64,000 nucleotides of DNA from Armatimonadota bacterium (GTDB taxonomy: Bacteria > Armatimonadota > Fimbriimonadia > Fimbriimonadales > GBS-DC). This document shows positions 2,304 to 9,170 of this stretch, piece after piece (within the stretch, counting starts at the first letter, position 1; each line of letters begins with the position of its first letter). Both the position numbers and the translations under genes were made by a program. The stretch is taken from NCBI GenBank assembly GCA_037444405.1, contig JBBIML010000007.1:128001-192000 (forward strand). The letters are read 5' to 3'. Below the pieces are notes generated by a model that was not told the origin of the DNA, ran no database searches, and worked only from the letters and a program-made list of their open reading frames with translations.

Positions 2304-3560
2304 ATGTGTGCAGGGAGAGCGTTCCGTAAAGGGTTTGTCGGGCTATTCAGCCTGTTGCTGGGGTGGGCAGGTGCGCAGACGCCCGCATTTTACGGTGCAG
2401 GCGACTTGCCCGGTGGCAACTACAGCAGCAACCTGTTCGCCATCTCCGCGAATGGACAGGTCGCCGTCGGTTCCAGCCTTTCTGCGAACGGCACAGAAGC
2501 GTGCTACTGGACGGTTACGACAGGGCTGGTGCCGCTGGGCGATTTGCCGGGTGGTACTTTTGTCAGCATCGCGTGGGGTGCATCGTATGACGGCGCGGTG
2601 ATTGTCGGTCAGGCGCGCTCGGCAAGTGGCACGGAGGCGTTCCTGTGGCGACGCGACACGGGCAGCATGATCGGGCTGGGCGATTTGCCTGGAGGTACAT
2701 TCCAGAGCTTCGCCCTTGGCGTGTCCGCCGACGGCAGTGTGGTGGTCGGCTGGAGCGCGTCAGCAAATGGCTCGGAGGCGTTCCGCTGGACACTGGACGC
2801 AGGCATGGTGCCGCTGGGCGACCTTCCCGGTGGCTCTTTCGCCAGCTATGCCCAGAATGTGTCTGCCGATGGGAATGTGATTGTCGGGCGCAGTGAATCG
2901 GCGAACGGCACGGAGGCGTTCCGCTGGACGCAAAGCACTGGCATGGAGCCGCTGGGCAGTCTGGGCGGCGCGTCATTTTTCAGCTACGCCTACGCCGCTT
3001 CCGCCGATGGCAGTGTGGTGGTCGGCTGGAGCCGCTCACTGAACGGGCTGGAGGCGTTCCGCTGGACCGCCGATGACGGCATGCAGGGGCTGGGCGATCT
3101 GGAATCGGGCGCCTTTGAGAGCCGCGCGTATGCGGTGTCAGCAGATGGACGCCTGATAGGCGGGTTCGGCACCTCCGATATTGGTAAAGAGGCGGTGCTG
3201 TGGGACCCTGTCAACGGCATGCGGCGAGTCAGGGATATCCTGCTGGCGCTGGGTCTTTCGGAGGTAGAGAACTGGCGACTGGAGGAGGTGCGTGCCATTT
3301 CTGCCGACGGCACGGTGATTGCAGGCACAGGCGAGAATCCCAGCGGCAACAGGGAAGCATGGATTGCTGTCATCCCGCGCACAGATCGCCATGCAGGGGA
3401 TATTAATCTTGACGGCTGTGTGGACGACGCCGACCTGCTGCAGGTGCTGTTCGCCTTCGGCAATACAGGCTACTTCCCGCCCGAAGATGGGAACTACGAC
3501 GCGGTGGTGGATGATGCCGACCTGCTGCAGGTGCTGTTCAATTTTGGCAGCGGGTGTTAG
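2304..3560 (+). CDS. Secreted HAF-type extracellular repeat protein with C-terminal dockerin-like twin EF-hand tag
   Basis: Signal peptide; repeats EAFRWT...GMxxLGDLPGG...AxxVSADGSVVVG; two DDADLLQVLFxFG motifs at the C-terminus. Confidence 0.85.
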   Translation: MCAGRAFRKGFVGLFSLLLGWAGAQTPAFYGAGDLPGGNYSSNLFAISANGQVAVGSSLSANGTEACYWTVTTGLVPLGDLPGGTFVSIAWGASYDGAVIVGQARSASGTEAFLWRRDTGSMIGLGDLPGGTFQSFALGVSADGSVVVGWSASANGSEAFRWTLDAGMVPLGDLPGGSFASYAQNVSADGNVIVGRSESANGTEAFRWTQSTGMEPLGSLGGASFFSYAYAASADGSVVVGWSRSLNGLEAFRWTADDGMQGLGDLESGAFESRAYAVSADGRLIGGFGTSDIGKEAVLWDPVNGMRRVRDILLALGLSEVENWRLEEVRAISADGTVIAGTGENPSGNREAWIAVIPRTDRHAGDINLDGCVDDADLLQVLFAFGNTGYFPPEDGNYDAVVDDADLLQVLFNFGSGC

Positions 3561-3789
3561 GCTGCCCCCTGCGTAGGAGAGGGGCATGAAGCTGGGGAAA
3601 GATGTAGCGAGCCAGTGCGTCGCTTGCAATCCCCAGGTGTTGCCCAGATTTTTCCTTCCTGACTCGCGACCGCAAACCCTGCCAGAGGGTGTGCATGACC
3701 TGGGGATTCGCCGCGCTGAGATTCGCCCCTGAATGGCAGGGATACAGGATATGGTGGCGTACAGGAGCAGGGGACACAACAGAAAGGGT

Positions 3790-3874
3790 TGGTGCCCGGG
3801 GCGGGACTCGAACCCGCACGGGTTATCCCCAGAGGATTTTAAGTCCCCCGCGTCTGCCGTTCCGCCACCCGGGC
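3790..3874 (-). tRNA. tRNA-Leu (anticodon TAA)
   Basis: Reverse complement GCCCGGGTGGCGGAACGGCAGACGC-GGGGA-CTTAAAA-TCCTC...GGTTCGAGTCCCGCCCCGGGCACCA: acceptor stem, T-loop GTTCGAG, long variable arm, encoded CCA. Confidence 0.97.
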
Positions 3875-3938
3875 AACGGTTTCCTCCCTGAATGGATGAT
3901 GGGCGCTCATAATCGCGGATGCAGGTTCCGCGCAGCTA

Positions 3939-4045
3939 AAAGGATACCCTATCGCTTTGTCGAATAGCCCACGCAGGCGGCTCATCTGTATCAATCGCCG
4001 CAGTTGCATGCGGATTAAGCAGGAATCGGCGATCCGCTGTCGAAG
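3939..4045 (+). promoter_or_regulatory. Two tandem sigmaH-like promoters
   Basis: AAAGGATAC-N11-GTCGAAT (3939-3965) and GCAGGAATC-N11-GTCGAAG (4019-4045); resemble Bacillus sigmaH consensus RNAGGAWWW-N11/12-RNNGAAT. Confidence 0.55.
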
Positions 4046-4220
4046 ATCGTTCAACAGGAAGGCAATTAAGCAGGAATCGGCGTGTCGATACAAGTATTCT
4101 ATAGCCGAAGCAGGGCACTGATACAAAGTGAGCAGCTGGAAGGGTGGCGGCTGTTGCCTCGACGCTTTTCCCTGAGCGATGTCTGTGCAGCGCGTATGCG
4201 CGTGTTAGCGGAGGTAGGCG

Positions 4221-4913
4221 ATGGTGGAGCGTCGCTGGAGTGCAGCTCAGATCGAGGCGACCCTGCGCGAGCTGAAAGGCGTGTGCGGAGCGCGTGTGGT
4301 GGCGGATGAAAAGGGTCTCATTCAGGAAATCCACCTGCTGGTGGAGGGGGATCGGAACCCGAAGCAGGTGGTGCGCGATGTCGAATCCGCCCTGATGGCG
4401 CACTTCGGCGTGCATATCGACCATCGCAAGGTGAGCGTGGCACAGAAAGGCGCAGGGCGTGGGTATACTCCCGCGCGATTGCGCTGGCTCGATTTGCAGA
4501 TTGTTCAGGAAGGCACGCGAGCGACCGCGACGGTGTTCGTGGAGCGGGGCGGTCAGGTCTATCGGGGTACGGCGTCCGGCGTGCGCGCCAGCACGCAACT
4601 CCCACGACTGGTCGCCACCGCCACCCTGCGCGCTGTTGAGTCGGCACACGGGCTACATGAGCGGTTCGGACTGGAAGATGTGTCGACCAACACGGTGCTG
4701 GCAGGGTATCCTGTGGCAGTGGTGCTGGTGAGCGCGGTGCGTGAGAACGGCGAGGACCTGCTGGTGGGCAGTGCGCTGGTGCGTCAGGATGTGTATCGAG
4801 CGATTGGGCTGGCAACTTTAGATGCGGTTAATCGGCGGGTGGTTGCTTTCCCCAGCGATTTTGAGCCGACGCCAGAGGCGGCGGTGCTGATGCAGGGACA
4901 AGTAACGGATTAG
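4221..4913 (+). CDS. Conserved hypothetical protein
   Basis: GGAGGT RBS before ATG; 230 aa; PKQVVRDVESAL...IDHRKVSVAQ motif; C-terminal 'ATLDAVNRR' segment reminiscent of the LeuA allosteric domain. Confidence 0.75.
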   Translation: MVERRWSAAQIEATLRELKGVCGARVVADEKGLIQEIHLLVEGDRNPKQVVRDVESALMAHFGVHIDHRKVSVAQKGAGRGYTPARLRWLDLQIVQEGTRATATVFVERGGQVYRGTASGVRASTQLPRLVATATLRAVESAHGLHERFGLEDVSTNTVLAGYPVAVVLVSAVRENGEDLLVGSALVRQDVYRAIGLATLDAVNRRVVAFPSDFEPTPEAAVLMQGQVTD

Positions 4914-4936
4914 GGGCGCGGTCACCGCGCCCGTAC
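4911..4936. repeat. REP-like palindrome (GTAG/GTAC family)
   Basis: TAGGGGCGCGGTCACCGCGCCCGTAC; similar copies at 13598, 36859, 36910, 46795, 46830, 49920 and 57371. Confidence 0.75.
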
Positions 4937-5041
4937 CCACTTGGGGCGCATATCCCGCAGATGCGCCCTATCGGGCAGGGCGAGCGCAGAAGCGGAGCGG
5001 AACCGAGCGACGCATATTCTCGACACAGGAGGGAGCAGCTG

Positions 5042-5179
5042 ATGCGACGGTGGCTCGTTCTGATGGCTGCGCTCGTTGCGCTGATGGCGGTCGCCAGCGC
5101 GAAGAAGGTGTACTACCCGCACCGCTGGGATGACCCGCTGGAGGCGCAACCCAACACGGTGGTGTTGCCCACACCATAA
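5042..5179 (+). CDS. 45-aa secreted microprotein (putative signalling-peptide precursor)
   Basis: AGGAGG RBS upstream; MRRWLVLMAALVALMAVASA|KKVYYPHRWDDPLEAQPNTVVLPTP, a typical Sec signal ending in A-S-A. Confidence 0.75.
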   Translation: MRRWLVLMAALVALMAVASAKKVYYPHRWDDPLEAQPNTVVLPTP

Positions 5180-5283
5180 GGGGCACACTTGAAAGGATAG
5201 CGCGAAGCGCTTGCCCTGCCTGAAAGTGAACCCTCGTTCCCGGCGGCACTGGCTGCCGCCTATAGCCGCATCGGAAACGAACA

Positions 5284-6651
5284 ATGGCAATCGCGCACAG
5301 GAATCAGCTGCGGAGGCGGCACTGGCTCTGGAGTGGACTGCTTTCGGCAACGGCGATACTGATTCTGATGGCGGCGGGCAGCCCCATCCAGCAAGCAGGG
5401 CAACTGCCCCTGCTACTGGGGCTGGCAGCTGTCGCGCTGCTGGGTGAGCTGCTGCTGATCCGCTATCCGCTCCGCCACGGCTACACCGATCGCGGCATCT
5501 GGGTGAGCGTCAGCACGCCCATCGTGGCGGCGGTGATTTTGCTCTACGGTTGGGCGATGGGCGTGTGGCTCGATGCGGGCGTCACCTTCGGCGCAGGACT
5601 GCTCACCGCTCGGCTCAAACAGTCGCGCCTGCGCTGGGTGTGGCTCAACACGGCGCAGAGCGTGCTGTGCGCCGCTGCAGCCGGCATCTGTCCCATCGCT
5701 TTCCAGTACCTGTTAGATGGGTTCAGCGAGGCGCCTGCCGGCGTTTTTGCGAACACCCTCTTTGCTTCACCTGCCGTCGCTGTGCTGGCTCTGTTCACCA
5801 TCCTGGTTGTTTATAGCATGATCAATAACCTGCTGGTGTCGGTCACGGTGGCTCTGGCGGAGGGCGTGCGGTTTGGGTGGGTGTTGCGCGAGTCGCTGCT
5901 CGATTTGCCGCGCGAGACACTGCCGATGTTCCCGCTGAGCCTGCTGCTAATGGCGATGCTCCATCTATATGGGCTTACAGGTTCGCTGACCGTGCTGGCG
6001 CCCTATCTGGCGCTGCGCCAGGCGTTCATTCTCTCCACACGCCAGCATGAGCTGTATCATCAGACGATTCGCAGTCTGGGCTTTTTGATTCAGCGGGCGC
6101 ATCCGTACACTGGGGGGCATCTGCAGCGGGTGGCGCAGTGGGGTCGGCGTGTCGCCGAGCGGCTGGGGCTACCCCCCGAACGCTGTGAACTCATCTACGA
6201 AGCCGCGCTCCTGCACGACCTCGGCAAAACGGTGCTGGATGAACGAATCCTCAACAAACCGGGGCGACTGACCCCGCGCGAATGGGAGCAGGTGCAACGC
6301 CATCCGCAGCTGGGCGCGGAAATCCTCACCGATGTGCCGTTCCTGAACGCGATTGTGCCCTGGATTACCTATCACCATGAGCGCCCCGATGGCAAAGGCT
6401 ACCCGCACGGACTGAGAGGCGACCAGATTCCGCTGGAGGCACGGATTATCGCCGTCGTGGACGCCTTCGACGCGATGATTGGCGGCGAAGCGCCCAGTCA
6501 GCAGCGCCAGTATCGGCGCTCACTCACCATCCCCGAAGCGCTGAACGAGCTGCGGCGCGGCGCGGGCACGCAGTTCGACCCGCAGGTGGTGCAGGTGTTC
6601 GAGCAGGTGGTGCAGGAATGGTTGCCGTATCAGGAGGGGACGCGGAGGTAA
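5284..6651 (+). CDS. Multi-pass membrane HD-GYP phosphodiesterase
   Basis: About 250-aa hydrophobic N-terminus; YTGGH, LLHDLGK, HHERPDGKGYP, IIAVVDAFDAM and RQYR motifs intact. Confidence 0.92.
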   Translation: MAIAHRNQLRRRHWLWSGLLSATAILILMAAGSPIQQAGQLPLLLGLAAVALLGELLLIRYPLRHGYTDRGIWVSVSTPIVAAVILLYGWAMGVWLDAGVTFGAGLLTARLKQSRLRWVWLNTAQSVLCAAAAGICPIAFQYLLDGFSEAPAGVFANTLFASPAVAVLALFTILVVYSMINNLLVSVTVALAEGVRFGWVLRESLLDLPRETLPMFPLSLLLMAMLHLYGLTGSLTVLAPYLALRQAFILSTRQHELYHQTIRSLGFLIQRAHPYTGGHLQRVAQWGRRVAERLGLPPERCELIYEAALLHDLGKTVLDERILNKPGRLTPREWEQVQRHPQLGAEILTDVPFLNAIVPWITYHHERPDGKGYPHGLRGDQIPLEARIIAVVDAFDAMIGGEAPSQQRQYRRSLTIPEALNELRRGAGTQFDPQVVQVFEQVVQEWLPYQEGTRR

Positions 6652-6654
6652 GCG

Positions 6655-7371
6655 ATGGAGAACCTGTGGCTGGGTCTGGCAGTGGTGCTGGCTTCGATCG
6701 GTGCGCTGGGCTATTATGCTTTTATTTTTCTACCCGCCCAGCTCCATCGCTGGCACTGTCAGACCCTGCGGGCGTTCGCGAAGGTGATCGAGCTACGCAC
6801 CCAGGGTCGCTACGGGGACACCGAAACCATGGCGCAGTTAGCGCGGGCGGTCAGCGCGCGATTGGGGCTCGACGCGCAGGAACGCAAACGGCTGGAGCTA
6901 TCGGTCTACCTGCGCGACATCAGCATGGTGAGCCTGCCCTACGCGCTGCTGAATAAGACGACGCCCCTCTCACCGATGGAGCAGCTGACACTGATGCGGC
7001 ATGCGGAGATCAGCGCGGCGATGGTGGAGCAGATTCCGGGACTGAGTGCGGTGGCGCCGCTGGTGCGCCTGCATCATGTGAGTTATGCGCAGCAGCCCGA
7101 TGCCCCGCTGAGCGCGCACCTGCTGTCGGCGCTGTCAGACCTGATGGAGCAGGCTCAGCGGGAGGGCTATGAGGCGGCGTTGCGCGTGTTGCAGGCAGGT
7201 GCGGGCACGCGCTATCACCCCGCGGTTGTGCCGGCAATTGAGGCGGAGCTGCAGGCGCGCCCGCTGGAGAGCTGGGTGCCCCTACGGCGTTCCGCTGCCC
7301 TGTGGTTCGGGCTGATACTGTATCCGCTGAAAGATCTGTCGCGCCTGCTCATAGAATTCGCGCGGCACTAA
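6655..7371 (+). CDS. Degenerate HD-GYP-like protein with a single N-terminal TM helix
   Basis: HD replaced by RD (YLRDISM), GYP loop absent, 'GAGTRYHP' tail retained; 3 nt after the preceding gene. Confidence 0.8.
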   Translation: MENLWLGLAVVLASIGALGYYAFIFLPAQLHRWHCQTLRAFAKVIELRTQGRYGDTETMAQLARAVSARLGLDAQERKRLELSVYLRDISMVSLPYALLNKTTPLSPMEQLTLMRHAEISAAMVEQIPGLSAVAPLVRLHHVSYAQQPDAPLSAHLLSALSDLMEQAQREGYEAALRVLQAGAGTRYHPAVVPAIEAELQARPLESWVPLRRSAALWFGLILYPLKDLSRLLIEFARH

Positions 7372-8355
7372 CTTCGGCGCGCGCACCCCCTCCGCCAGCG
7401 GGATCGCCACAATCTCGGTGCCACGCAATGCCGACATCAGCCCGAACTGGCGTTCATGCACCAGCTCGGCAGCTTTGAGCGCGAGTCGCGTCGCCAGCAC
7501 GCGATCGAACACTGTCGGCGGTCCGCCCCGCTGAATGTGCCCGATGACCGCATAGCGCGTCTCGAAGCCTGTTATCTCTTCGATTTTCTGGGCGATTCGG
7601 GCGCCGACCGCGCGCTCGCGCAGCACGGGATGCCCGAAGTCGTCGGTGGCTATCGGCTGCCCGTCATGTTCAAACGGCAGCTCCACTCCTTCGGAGACGA
7701 CCACCAGTGCGTAGCGCTTGCCACTGGCATAGAGCTGGCGCAGGTAGTCGCACATCTCCTGGAGGTCGATGGGCACTTCGGGGATCAGAATCCAGTCGGC
7801 GCCGCCACCGATGCCCGCGTAGAGCGCGACCCAGCCCGCATGGCGCCCCATCACCTCCAGCACGATGACCCGCGTGTGCGATTTGGCGGTGTCGCGCAGG
7901 CGGTCCATCGCCTCCACCGCGACCGAGACCGCGCTATCAAACCCGAAGGTGAAGTCGGTGCCGCTTAAATCGTTGTCCATCGTTTTGGGCACGCCGACGA
8001 CAGGGAGCTGATGCTCCTGATAGAGGCGGTTGGCGACGCCCAGCGTGTCCTCCCCGCCGATGGCGATCAGGGCATCCAGTTGAAGGGCGCGATAGTTCTC
8101 CAGCAGGCGCTGGAGGTCGCCCTCCTGCTTGAACGGGTTCGTGCGGGAGGTGCCCAGAATGGTGCCGCCCTCCCGAATAATCTCGTCCACGCGCTCGACG
8201 CTGAGTGGGACGGTCCAGCCTTCCACCAGTCCGCGCCAGCCGTGCTGGATGCCGACAGGTGTATGACCGTCGCGTATCAGGCGCAGCGTTGCGCCCCGTA
8301 TCGCGGGATTCAGACCGGGGCAGTCGCCCCCACCTGTCAAAATGCCAACGCGCAT
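7282..8355 (-). CDS. pfkA: 6-phosphofructokinase (PfkA family, probably PPi-dependent)
   Basis: GILTGGGDCPGLN, GGTILGTSR, IGGEDT, PKTMDND, EVMGRHAGW, GHIQRGG; AGGAGG RBS. Confidence 0.93.
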   Translation of the reverse strand: MRVGILTGGGDCPGLNPAIRGATLRLIRDGHTPVGIQHGWRGLVEGWTVPLSVERVDEIIREGGTILGTSRTNPFKQEGDLQRLLENYRALQLDALIAIGGEDTLGVANRLYQEHQLPVVGVPKTMDNDLSGTDFTFGFDSAVSVAVEAMDRLRDTAKSHTRVIVLEVMGRHAGWVALYAGIGGGADWILIPEVPIDLQEMCDYLRQLYASGKRYALVVVSEGVELPFEHDGQPIATDDFGHPVLRERAVGARIAQKIEEITGFETRYAVIGHIQRGGPPTVFDRVLATRLALKAAELVHERQFGLMSALRGTEIVAIPLAEGVRAPKLVPREFYEQARQIFQRIQYQPEPQGSGTP

Positions 8356-8648: not shown

Positions 8649-9170
8649 TCAGAAGCGGAACTGGAGCGCGACGGTGAAGCCCTGAAGGTCGTCGCCGCCG
8701 TCCACGAAACCGCCATAGCCCACGAACAGGGCGACCGGTGTGGTGCCCGCGCTGAAGTTGTAGCCGAAGCCGAGCGACCAGTCGAAGCCAGTCTTGTCAT
8801 CGCCATTGCTGGCGAAGCCGATCCCGGCAGTCGCGCGGTAGAAGAACTGCTCGTTGAGGTAGCCCGTGAAGCTCAGTCCGACGGGGATGACGCGGGCATC
8901 ACTGGTGCCGTAGAAACCTACGAACGCCCCCAGATCGTAGTAGTAGCCCGACTCAGTCGGCTTGCTGGTCTGGAAGTTGTAGGTGAGGTTGACGCTGAAC
9001 CACACATCCTCGGTCGCCTTGCGCACCGACTCCTTGGATGGGAGGAAGATACCAGCGTACACCGCATAGCCCTGCTGGTTCGTCTCTTGCGCACGGGCTG
9101 GTGCTGCCAGCATCAGCGTTCCCACCAGCGCTACTGTTATAAGCCACAGCATTCCCTTGTGCATCATCAT
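8649..9170 (-). CDS. Small outer-membrane beta-barrel protein
   Basis: Signal peptide, alternating aromatic/Gly strands, C-terminal LQFRF. Confidence 0.8.
   Translation of the reverse strand: MMMHKGMLWLITVALVGTLMLAAPARAQETNQQGYAVYAGIFLPSKESVRKATEDVWFSVNLTYNFQTSKPTESGYYYDLGAFVGFYGTSDARVIPVGLSFTGYLNEQFFYRATAGIGFASNGDDKTGFDWSLGFGYNFSAGTTPVALFVGYGGFVDGGDDLQGFTVALQFRF

Follow-up and report, generated by a model that had tools for sequence, protein, structure and literature searches.

Several described systems resemble parts of the locus analysed here. The small membrane proteins MgrB and SafA regulate the sensor PhoQ; the gene of the small peptide AgrD adjoins that of AgrC, a polytopic receptor with short loops; and in the DSF–RpfC–RpfG system (DSF, diffusible signal factor) RpfG links a cell–cell signal to HD-GYP output. 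Among membrane-bound HD-GYP proteins, the MASE9 domain was defined on TM1467 of Thermotoga maritima and HdgA of Streptomyces venezuelae and is proposed to bind its ligand within the membrane, its periplasmic loops being short and poorly conserved (Galperin and Chou, bioRxiv 10.1101/2021.11.05.467447). The same paper describes HnoD of Shewanella, a catalytically inactive HD-GYP protein that inhibits the phosphodiesterase HnoB (bioRxiv 10.1101/2021.11.05.467447). Among nascent peptides, WPPP and YPPP are listed with the strongest ribosome-stalling motifs, and FXXYXIWPPP is given as an artificial arrest peptide (PMC11669330, PMC4176338). Here we analysed a 64,000-nt stretch of DNA from an Armatimonadota bacterium of the Fimbriimonadales (the window; assembly GCA_037444405.1, contig JBBIML010000007.1, positions 128,001 to 192,000) and describe in it a cassette of four co-oriented genes that, by open reading frame (ORF) listing and translation, spans positions 4221–7371 of the + strand. 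It encodes a 230-residue protein (A230), a 45-residue peptide from a short ORF (sORF), an intact HD-GYP protein and a degenerate HD-GYP protein. Its known parts are MASE9-HD-GYP enzymes, inactive HD-GYP regulators, small-protein regulators of sensors and arrest peptides; as a whole, the cassette combines a second-messenger enzyme of a familiar kind with partners that are unfamiliar and deeply conserved.

Conservation of the cassette and its protein families

Judged by gene content and order across genomes, the cassette is a phylum-wide signalling operon of Armatimonadota for cyclic di-GMP (c-di-GMP). All 24 further genomes of the window's family encode a full-length HD-GYP protein, and tblastn over 20 loci of that family recovered A230 in 18, the sORF in 19 and the second HD protein in all 20, with a gene order that is constant throughout; the two A230 misses are loci cut by contig ends. 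Families f2 and f4, of the same taxonomic order, keep all four genes with a diverged sORF. At the level of the phylum, an A230 profile found about 70 full-length copies among 301 genomes. The HD pair lay downstream of A230 in 18 of 20 loci sampled across families, and one of the two loci that lack it has a MASE9 ORF that enters masked bases. Twenty further short loci gave an HD match in 18 cases, the other two ending at a contig edge, and in the loci examined the intact HD-GYP protein was invariably paired with a degenerate one. Because the same order recurs in relatives whose HD-GYP identity is as low as 28–35%, it is conserved far beyond chance. An earlier note on this DNA had proposed four co-oriented genes, namely that of A230, a 45-residue sORF, a gene for an HD-GYP protein with several transmembrane (TM) segments and one for a degenerate HD-GYP protein with a single TM segment, and all four are in place.

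The intact HD-GYP protein matches Pfam HD_5 (PF13487) with an E value of 3e-36 over residues 269–435, the full length of the profile, and HD with 3e-22; both its HD dyad and its HHExxDGxGYP motif are intact. The dyad was present in all 41 homologues of this protein that were scanned, five of which carry Lys in place of the Glu of HHE. We predict that the protein is a c-di-GMP phosphodiesterase. N-terminal residues 1 to about 250 form a MASE9-like domain of eight TM segments. Pfam MASE9 (PF20972) matches 11 of 23 aligned homologues (best E value 9.6e-11); the window protein has no such match at E ≤ 0.01, though it aligns throughout with the homologues that do. In the alignment the loops vary, Gly89 and Asn122 are invariant and polar stretches are conserved inside the TM segments; the poorly conserved loops described for MASE9 thus recur here, next to invariant intramembrane polar residues. 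The MASE9-like domain searched alone against 1.8 billion representatives gave only 8 matches at E ≤ 0.001. We also observed a Cys-rich insert in the HD-GYP members of loci L040 and L047, and one member of the alignment matches a rubredoxin-like Pfam family.

The second HD protein matches HD_5 with an E value of 2.4e-14 and has one TM segment. Its HD dyad reads Arg-Asp, its HHE reads HHV and the GYP is absent; these motif states and the HD_5 matches of both proteins confirm the pair of an intact and a degenerate HD-GYP that the earlier note had proposed. The His of the dyad is replaced in 29 of the 30 homologues aligned, and HHE..GYP persists in distant families but has disappeared from the window's order. 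As the dyad His is gone across the phylum, the comparison of homologues indicates that the second HD protein is an old pseudoenzyme and not a product of recent decay. In loci L039–L043 (families f9 and f25), the first HD protein has HHK for HHE and is about 515–525 residues long, and the second keeps HHE..GYP without the His of HD, the two partners differing in their defect.

A230 has no match in Pfam or NCBIfam, its profile found nothing among PDB sequences at E ≤ 1, and the ESM Atlas yielded unnamed clusters only. Of its 620 homologues, those with a name are hypothetical proteins of Armatimonadota, from metagenome-assembled genomes labelled Armatimonadota or Fimbriimonadales; one source names two of them 'predicted nucleic-acid-binding protein', and a precomputed PF08502 (LeuA_dimer) assignment occurs on 1 of the 120 homologues listed. 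An AlphaFold2 model (predicted local distance difference test score 88) has two domains. The N-domain (residues 3–77) is ferredoxin-like, with the order alpha-beta-beta-alpha-beta, and its best structural matches, with Z scores of 8–9 to adenylate-enzyme C-subdomains and to cytoplasmic domains of cation diffusion facilitator transporters, are little informative at that level. The C-domain (residues 85–208) consists of two beta-beta-beta-alpha units. It aligns with the isoleucine-binding regulatory domain of citramalate synthase (3f6g_B) with Z 9.3 and a root-mean-square deviation of 3.3 over 109 residues, and with LeuA (3fig_A) with Z 7.5, and Foldseek gave an E value of 1.8e-5 for the regulatory-domain fold; weaker Foldseek rows (E about 1e-3 to 1e-4) were chains of double-stranded-RNA-binding domains (dsRBDs) and ribosomal protein S5. 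As modelled, the C-domain has the LeuA/citramalate-synthase regulatory-domain fold.

In many genomes the A230 profile also matches the C terminus of ORFs of 435–630 residues, and all ten of those examined, the window genome's own copy included, are CBS-CBS-GGDEF proteins. These fusions came from the profile search of genomes; a single-sequence search with the C-domain among longer proteins gave none. A CBS-GGDEF cyclase also lies about 5 kb from the cassette in family f18. Because the C-domain either adjoins the phosphodiesterase pair or is fused to a diguanylate cyclase, gene context points to a tie between A230 and c-di-GMP metabolism. One such fusion, on contig 16 of genome G000 (L036:1083-2441, + strand), is a CBS-CBS-GGDEF protein ending in the A230 C-domain, and just upstream of it a gene cut at the locus edge (L036:2-937) encodes sigma-70 regions 3 and 4 fused to GGDEF.

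The short gene and the RNA element around it

The sORF has a Shine–Dalgarno (SD) sequence, GGAGGGAG, that ends 6 nt ahead of its ATG. An SD is conserved ahead of every sORF copy, and the ATG is conserved in relatives. Over the first 33 codons of 18 distinct sequences from the window's family, the variable columns at codon positions 1, 2 and 3 number 14, 9 and 25 of 33, and pairwise codon differences comprise 1339 synonymous against 805 non-synonymous changes. In an alignment of 35 sequences spanning the phylum, the stretch from Met1 to Pro26 is gapless and Pro26 is invariant. The dominance of third-position substitutions, the conserved SD and the gapless Met1–Pro26 alignment lead us to conclude, from this comparative evidence, that the sORF is a genuine coding and translated gene. 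No match was found in Pfam or NCBIfam, and only 15 among 5.8 billion proteins, all of them unnamed or 'hypothetical', so the family is essentially unannotated. A profile of the sORF matched 16 of 20 loci outside its training set at E ≤ 0.01; two of the remaining loci gave E values of 0.3–0.5 and two no match. Together with the 19 of 20 loci in the window's family, these 16 independent loci across the phylum bear out the expectation of the earlier note that the sORF would be conserved upstream of homologous HD-GYP pairs.

The peptide has a basic N terminus, one hydrophobic segment and a small-x-small site. Its layout places mostly Lys or Arg at positions 2–3, the hydrophobic segment at positions 4–17 (maximum 2.0–3.0), small residues at 18–20, an aromatic residue and Pro at 25 and 26, and a variable tail. 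Position 25 is aromatic in 34 of 35 sequences, position 20 is Ala in 33 and position 19 is Gly in 24. Relative to a putative cleavage site after residue 20, conservation is highest at −2 and −1, and −3 takes A, L, F, S, Y, C or G. Lengths range from 25 to 47 residues, most copies outside the window's order stopping 0–3 residues from Pro26; only 5–8 residues follow the putative cleavage site in most families, and 25 do in the window. The variable part is the tail past Pro26, and the core is conserved phylum-wide. At the conserved site the window peptide reads aromatic-Pro-His, and its family has aromatic-Pro-His or aromatic-Pro-Asn and no Pro-Pro. Codons 3–5 and 17–21 include several without synonymous variation among the 18 sequences, and RNAalifold pairs codons 2–5 with codons 17–19; there may be an RNA-level constraint inside the sORF.

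The sORF lies within an RNA element of about 250 nt that is closed by a covarying long-range helix. In intergenic alignments, the sequence some 70 nt ahead of the sORF start proved to be reverse-complementary to one about 30 nt past its stop. A gapless search recovered this helix in most loci, with lengths of 10–19 bp, a sequence that varies between families and a constant position. The window helix of 17 bp compares with a median of 8 and a maximum of 11 bp after shuffling, and shuffled medians across loci were 8–10 bp. RNAalifold found the helix in two separate alignments. In the distant set, 89.7% of cells were paired, against 27–42% when the partners were slid, and 13 of 14 pairs had changed on both sides, a count reached by 0 of 500 shuffles; in the window's order, the corresponding values were 92.0% against 35–54%, and 9 of 19 pairs, reached by 2 of 500 shuffles; all of these pair counts are biased towards the helix, since each sequence had been trimmed at its own best stem. 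A cross-locus pairing control is free of that bias: stems within a locus had a median of 12 bp, against 9 bp with non-cognate downstream regions, and in 9 of 24 representatives the own stem exceeded all 23 cross pairings.

Within the element, a second hairpin pairs the SD with an anti-SD stretch. In the window's order 90.8% of its cells are paired and three pairs have changed on both sides; it was seen in that order only and was not recovered in the distant set. A GC-rich hairpin occupies the same place behind A230 in most relatives and was not called an intrinsic terminator. The leader also holds GAGCG repeats that are conserved phylum-wide. Rfam 15 gave no family at E ≤ 1 for the window region and nine related loci, the sole matches being the tRNA and, elsewhere, one at chance level. 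A sequence-only model of the leader, searched in its own genome, found just the window copy (E 5.9e-7; next E 0.27 and 0.64), and the GAGCG-repeat pattern gave two matches there against three for the reversed pattern, the window copy being missed. The genome search thus gives no sign of a multi-copy riboswitch class. In some relatives only about 15 nt separate the A230 stop from the 5′ arm, which makes co-transcription of A230 and the sORF probable; the sequencing runs listed for expression evidence were four DNA runs of one study, with none of RNA. The helix may then serve in processing, stabilisation or insulation.

Upstream of A230, two exact 18-nt direct repeats share the core GCAGGAAT, which aligns with a conserved box in 12 aligned relatives, about 20 nt 5′ of a TATAAT-like hexamer; the repeat may serve as the −35 region of a promoter or as an operator. 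The alternative-sigma-like promoters of the earlier note were not confirmed: a scan of positions 3700–7600, which covered the sigma-70 consensus only, returned no site. Terminator-like sites from the scan all fell within genes.

Table 1 Features of the cassette and its surroundings in the window (positions of the window)
Feature	Position	Strand	Details
HAF-repeat protein	2304–3560		TIGR02913, 2e-37
tRNA-Leu(taa)	3790–3874	−	Upstream flank
Two exact 18-nt direct repeats	4014–4031 and 4065–4082	+	Repeat search; candidate promoter/operator sites
A230, 230 aa	4221–4913	+	ORF; cytoplasmic
GC-rich hairpin, no T-run	4911–4935	+	Inverted repeat with 12-nt arms, 92% complementary, right after A230 stop
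RNA element around the sORF	4968–5226	+	Closed by the long-range helix
Helix 5′ arm	4971–4987	+	17-bp gapless pairing with 5207–5223
SD-pairing hairpin	5016–5035	+	Anti-SD stretch against sORF SD; RNAalifold, 6 pairs
SD of the sORF	5028–5035	+	
sORF, 45 aa (P0001)	5042–5179	+	ORF with strong SD
Helix 3′ arm	5207–5223	+	Starts 27 nt past sORF stop, ends 60 nt ahead of HD-GYP start
Intact HD-GYP, 455 aa	5284–6651	+	About 8 hydrophobic segments; HD_5
Degenerate HD-GYP, 238 aa, 1 TM	6655–7371	+	HD_5
173-aa protein	8649–9170	−	Signal peptide; may be a small outer-membrane beta-barrel

The degenerate HD-GYP gene starts 3 nt past the stop of the intact one. Its last 90 nt (7282–7371) are overlapped by the 3′ end of a convergent phosphofructokinase gene. 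Position 3939, at which the earlier note had opened the cassette, is merely intergenic space beyond the tRNA-Leu gene. The flanking tRNA, HAF-repeat protein and phosphofructokinase genes are unrelated to the cassette. The HAF-repeat protein is secreted and has a repeated Asp-rich C-terminal segment. Farther downstream, the 173-residue protein has a signal peptide, a C-terminal aromatic residue and no family match, and it may be a small outer-membrane beta-barrel.

Readings of the microprotein

The features of the sORF and its neighbours allow us to propose, with a probability that we put at roughly 0.4, that its product is a single-pass microprotein partner of a membrane phosphodiesterase complex. 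The peptide would be inserted with its N terminus inside, would stay uncleaved and would be retained in the membrane, where it would pack against the MASE9 bundle, the TM helix of the pseudoenzyme or both and set phosphodiesterase activity, acting as MgrB does on PhoQ. The pseudoenzyme would be the regulatory half of a heterodimer with the intact HD-GYP protein. The RNA element would set the amount of microprotein separately from that of the neighbouring gene products, through processing, stabilisation or occlusion of the SD, and A230 would be a cytoplasmic ligand-binding (or RNA-binding) regulator common to the cyclase side of the pathway. We favour an uncleaved microprotein because the 26-residue unit is invariant in length across the phylum, because Gly19-Ala20 is the best conserved pair, which is not the usual −3/−1 pattern of signal peptidase, because some copies have only 25 residues, and because the sensing site proposed for MASE9 lies inside the membrane.

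Several observations weigh against this proposal. Six loci of families f3 and f5 have the HD pair without A230 or the sORF, and the sORF profile matched none of the six at E ≤ 1; conversely, at locus L055 (genome G157) A230 and the sORF are retained, but the HD pair is missing and a gene for a DUF5317 membrane protein follows instead. Since f3 and f5 lose both A230 and the sORF and L055 keeps both without the HD pair, the sORF tracks A230 at least as closely as it tracks the HD pair, its supposed receptor. The 11 loci of clade f32 encode a peptide whose N-terminal part is an amphipathic helix, neither hydrophobic nor membrane-spanning, the small residues and the aromatic-Pro motif being retained. 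A Pro-stop end is found in 20 of the 35 sORFs, and in 18 the aromatic residue is followed at once by Pro-Pro, which would also fit translational pausing. The hydrophobic stretch of about 10–14 residues plus small residues, and the small-x-small site, resemble an ordinary cleavable signal peptide, and two other exported proteins of the window carry a similar small-x-small site. The trimming bias in the RNA pair counts, given above, belongs on the same side. We considered the DUF5317 protein of L055 as a relative of MASE9-HD-GYP and rejected it, as profile comparison shows no relationship. About 3 kb beyond its gene lies a homologue of CvpA (colicin V production).

An exported signal, which the earlier note had favoured in the form of a quorum ligand, is a serious but less probable rival. 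The N-terminal 20 residues would be a cleaved signal peptide or a double-glycine-like leader, and the C-terminal piece, sensed by MASE9, would gate c-di-GMP hydrolysis as an autocrine or quorum cue. The basic n-region, the h-region of 10–14 residues and the small-x-small c-region, in which 33 of 35 copies have Ala at −1, suit export; however, the constant length of the pre-sequence is unusual among signal peptides, Gly at −2 is more conserved than −3, and the f32 copies have no hydrophobic export segment. The peptide gene adjoins a polytopic membrane sensor with short loops, an arrangement like that of AgrC, but the periplasmic loops of MASE9 vary while the peptide is constant within family f1, and the HD pair occurs without the sORF in f3 and f5. 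The would-be mature part carries an aromatic-Pro(-Pro) motif, and a C-terminal Pro, present in 20 of 35 copies, could make a free peptide resistant to exopeptidases; if the RNA element controls the sORF on its own after transcription, that too would suit a signal with regulated output. Against these stand a core conserved phylum-wide, with no diversification of the kind seen in pherotypes, and a cassette that consists of A230, the sORF and the HD pair alone, between tRNA and phosphofructokinase flanks, with no gene for a protease, an exporter or other processing. Armatimonadota are described as Gram-negative, so a released peptide would first be periplasmic, which also counts against an exported signal.

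What survives of the quorum proposal is therefore limited. A coding sORF does adjoin the HD-GYP pair; its core is conserved phylum-wide and has not diversified. Nothing shows a quorum-type diffusible signal. The putative mature part is short in most families, and f32 has no export-type hydrophobic segment. The pairing of peptide gene and supposed receptor is broken in the six f3 and f5 loci, which keep the HD pair without the sORF, and in L055, where the reverse holds. The quorum-sensing claim as written is not established, and several of these observations oppose a diffusible, diversifying pheromone.

The same gene distribution speaks for a module made of A230 and the sORF, linked to the HD pair by co-transcription alone, in which A230 might have the helical peptide as its ligand or anchor or might itself bind the RNA element. 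In nearly all loci A230 and the sORF are neighbours; they are jointly lost in f3 and f5 and jointly kept in L055, but the joint loss is explicable as one deletion of adjacent genes. The second beta-beta-beta-alpha unit of A230 and the helix that precedes it have the element order of a dsRBD, in line with the dsRBD and S5 rows of Foldseek, the nucleic-acid-binding name given to two homologues and the phylum-conserved GAGCG repeats in the leader; the best fold match of A230, however, is a small-molecule-binding regulatory domain and not a dsRBD, and a membrane-spanning peptide would show the cytoplasm only about three residues. We consider such a module quite improbable.

We find it similarly hard to credit, and slightly more so, that the sORF is a cis-acting leader in which a ribosome is placed or stalled at aromatic-Pro-Pro(-Pro) or Pro-stop within the RNA element and so controls the downstream HD-GYP genes, in the manner of TnaC, MgtP or polyproline/EF-P (elongation factor P) sensing. 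The Pro-Pro and Pro-stop ends counted above, the strong stalling by motifs of the WPPP and YPPP type and the fixed distance from Met1 to Pro26 would all fit, but Pro-Pro is absent from the conserved site in the window's family. A conserved RNA structure surrounds the sORF and includes a hairpin that occludes its SD, several sORF codons show no synonymous change, and in g3 genomes the 3′ arm lies only about 20–27 nt ahead of the HD-GYP start; yet the helix arms lie outside the ORF, 17–60 nt past the stop, where a terminating ribosome would not open the helix, and the distance from sORF stop to HD-GYP start ranges from 12 to about 560 nt. This reading also leaves the conserved basic and hydrophobic N terminus unexplained. 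Force-sensing arrest of the SecM or MifM type was rejected, as the hydrophobic segment ends just 5–8 residues before the Pro motif and would exert no such pulling force on a ribosome stalled there.

Least probable of all is a self-contained circuit in which the sORF yields a very short aromatic-Pro peptide that MASE9 senses within the membrane to gate directly the c-di-GMP hydrolysis of a heterodimer of enzyme and pseudoenzyme, and in which A230, with its dsRBD-like and LeuA-like domain, reads a metabolite or c-di-GMP, binds the sORF helix and sets peptide output; if true, it would amount to a new class of cell–cell or autocrine signalling, with a cis-regulatory RNA and an RNA-binding effector that are likewise new.

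Comparison with known systems

HD-GYP proteins with MASE-type domains are common, and the three conserved partners found here, a microprotein missing from almost all annotations, a pseudoenzyme and a domain common to the phylum's cyclases, offer experimental handles. The covarying helix, for which Rfam has no match, clearly shows a microprotein gene enclosed by a structured mRNA element. We found no description of the cassette, the A230 family, the sORF family or the RNA element in open-access text. Should the microprotein or a fragment of it control the phosphodiesterase, as we favour, it would be the first known small-protein or peptide input to c-di-GMP turnover, of which we found none in open-access text. 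Armatimonadota have few cultured members, and the proposal, if true, would give a first functional foothold in the phylum.

The LeuA and citramalate synthase regulatory domains (3f6g, 3fig and 1sr9) share with the A230 C-domain the double beta-beta-beta-alpha fold; A230, in contrast, is not attached to a synthase, and the window protein has no sequence-level match to them. Arrest and leader peptides (WPPP, TnaC, SecM and MifM) are likewise encoded by a short ORF that ends in aromatic-Pro-Pro(-Pro) or Pro-stop and lies within a structured leader RNA ahead of the regulated genes, whereas the window's family has no Pro-Pro, the N terminus is membrane- or export-like and the helix arms lie outside the ORF. 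AgrD/AgrC also sets a small peptide gene beside a membrane sensor with short loops, but the cassette lacks an AgrB-like or exporter gene and its peptide has not diversified. It differs from RpfC–RpfG in having no kinase or phosphorelay, sensor and HD-GYP being parts of one protein.

Closer likenesses are found for the membrane proteins. As in the MASE9-HD-GYP proteins, a polytopic domain with short loops and intramembrane polar residues is fused to an intact HD-GYP; here, by contrast, its gene shares a conserved operon with those of a pseudo-HD-GYP, a microprotein and A230, and the accessible portion of the MASE9 account names no partner genes. The pseudoenzyme resembles HnoD in being a degenerate HD-GYP without active-site residues that is presumed to act by protein contact, and differs in that a single TM helix anchors it in the membrane, a REC domain is lacking and its gene follows immediately on that of the intact partner. 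With MgrB and SafA the sORF product shares a length below 50 residues, a single hydrophobic helix flanked by charges (f32 excepted), a separate gene and a proposed role as modulator of a sensor. Unlike them, it would act on a c-di-GMP phosphodiesterase and not on a kinase, and its gene lies in the operon of its putative target and is conserved over a phylum.

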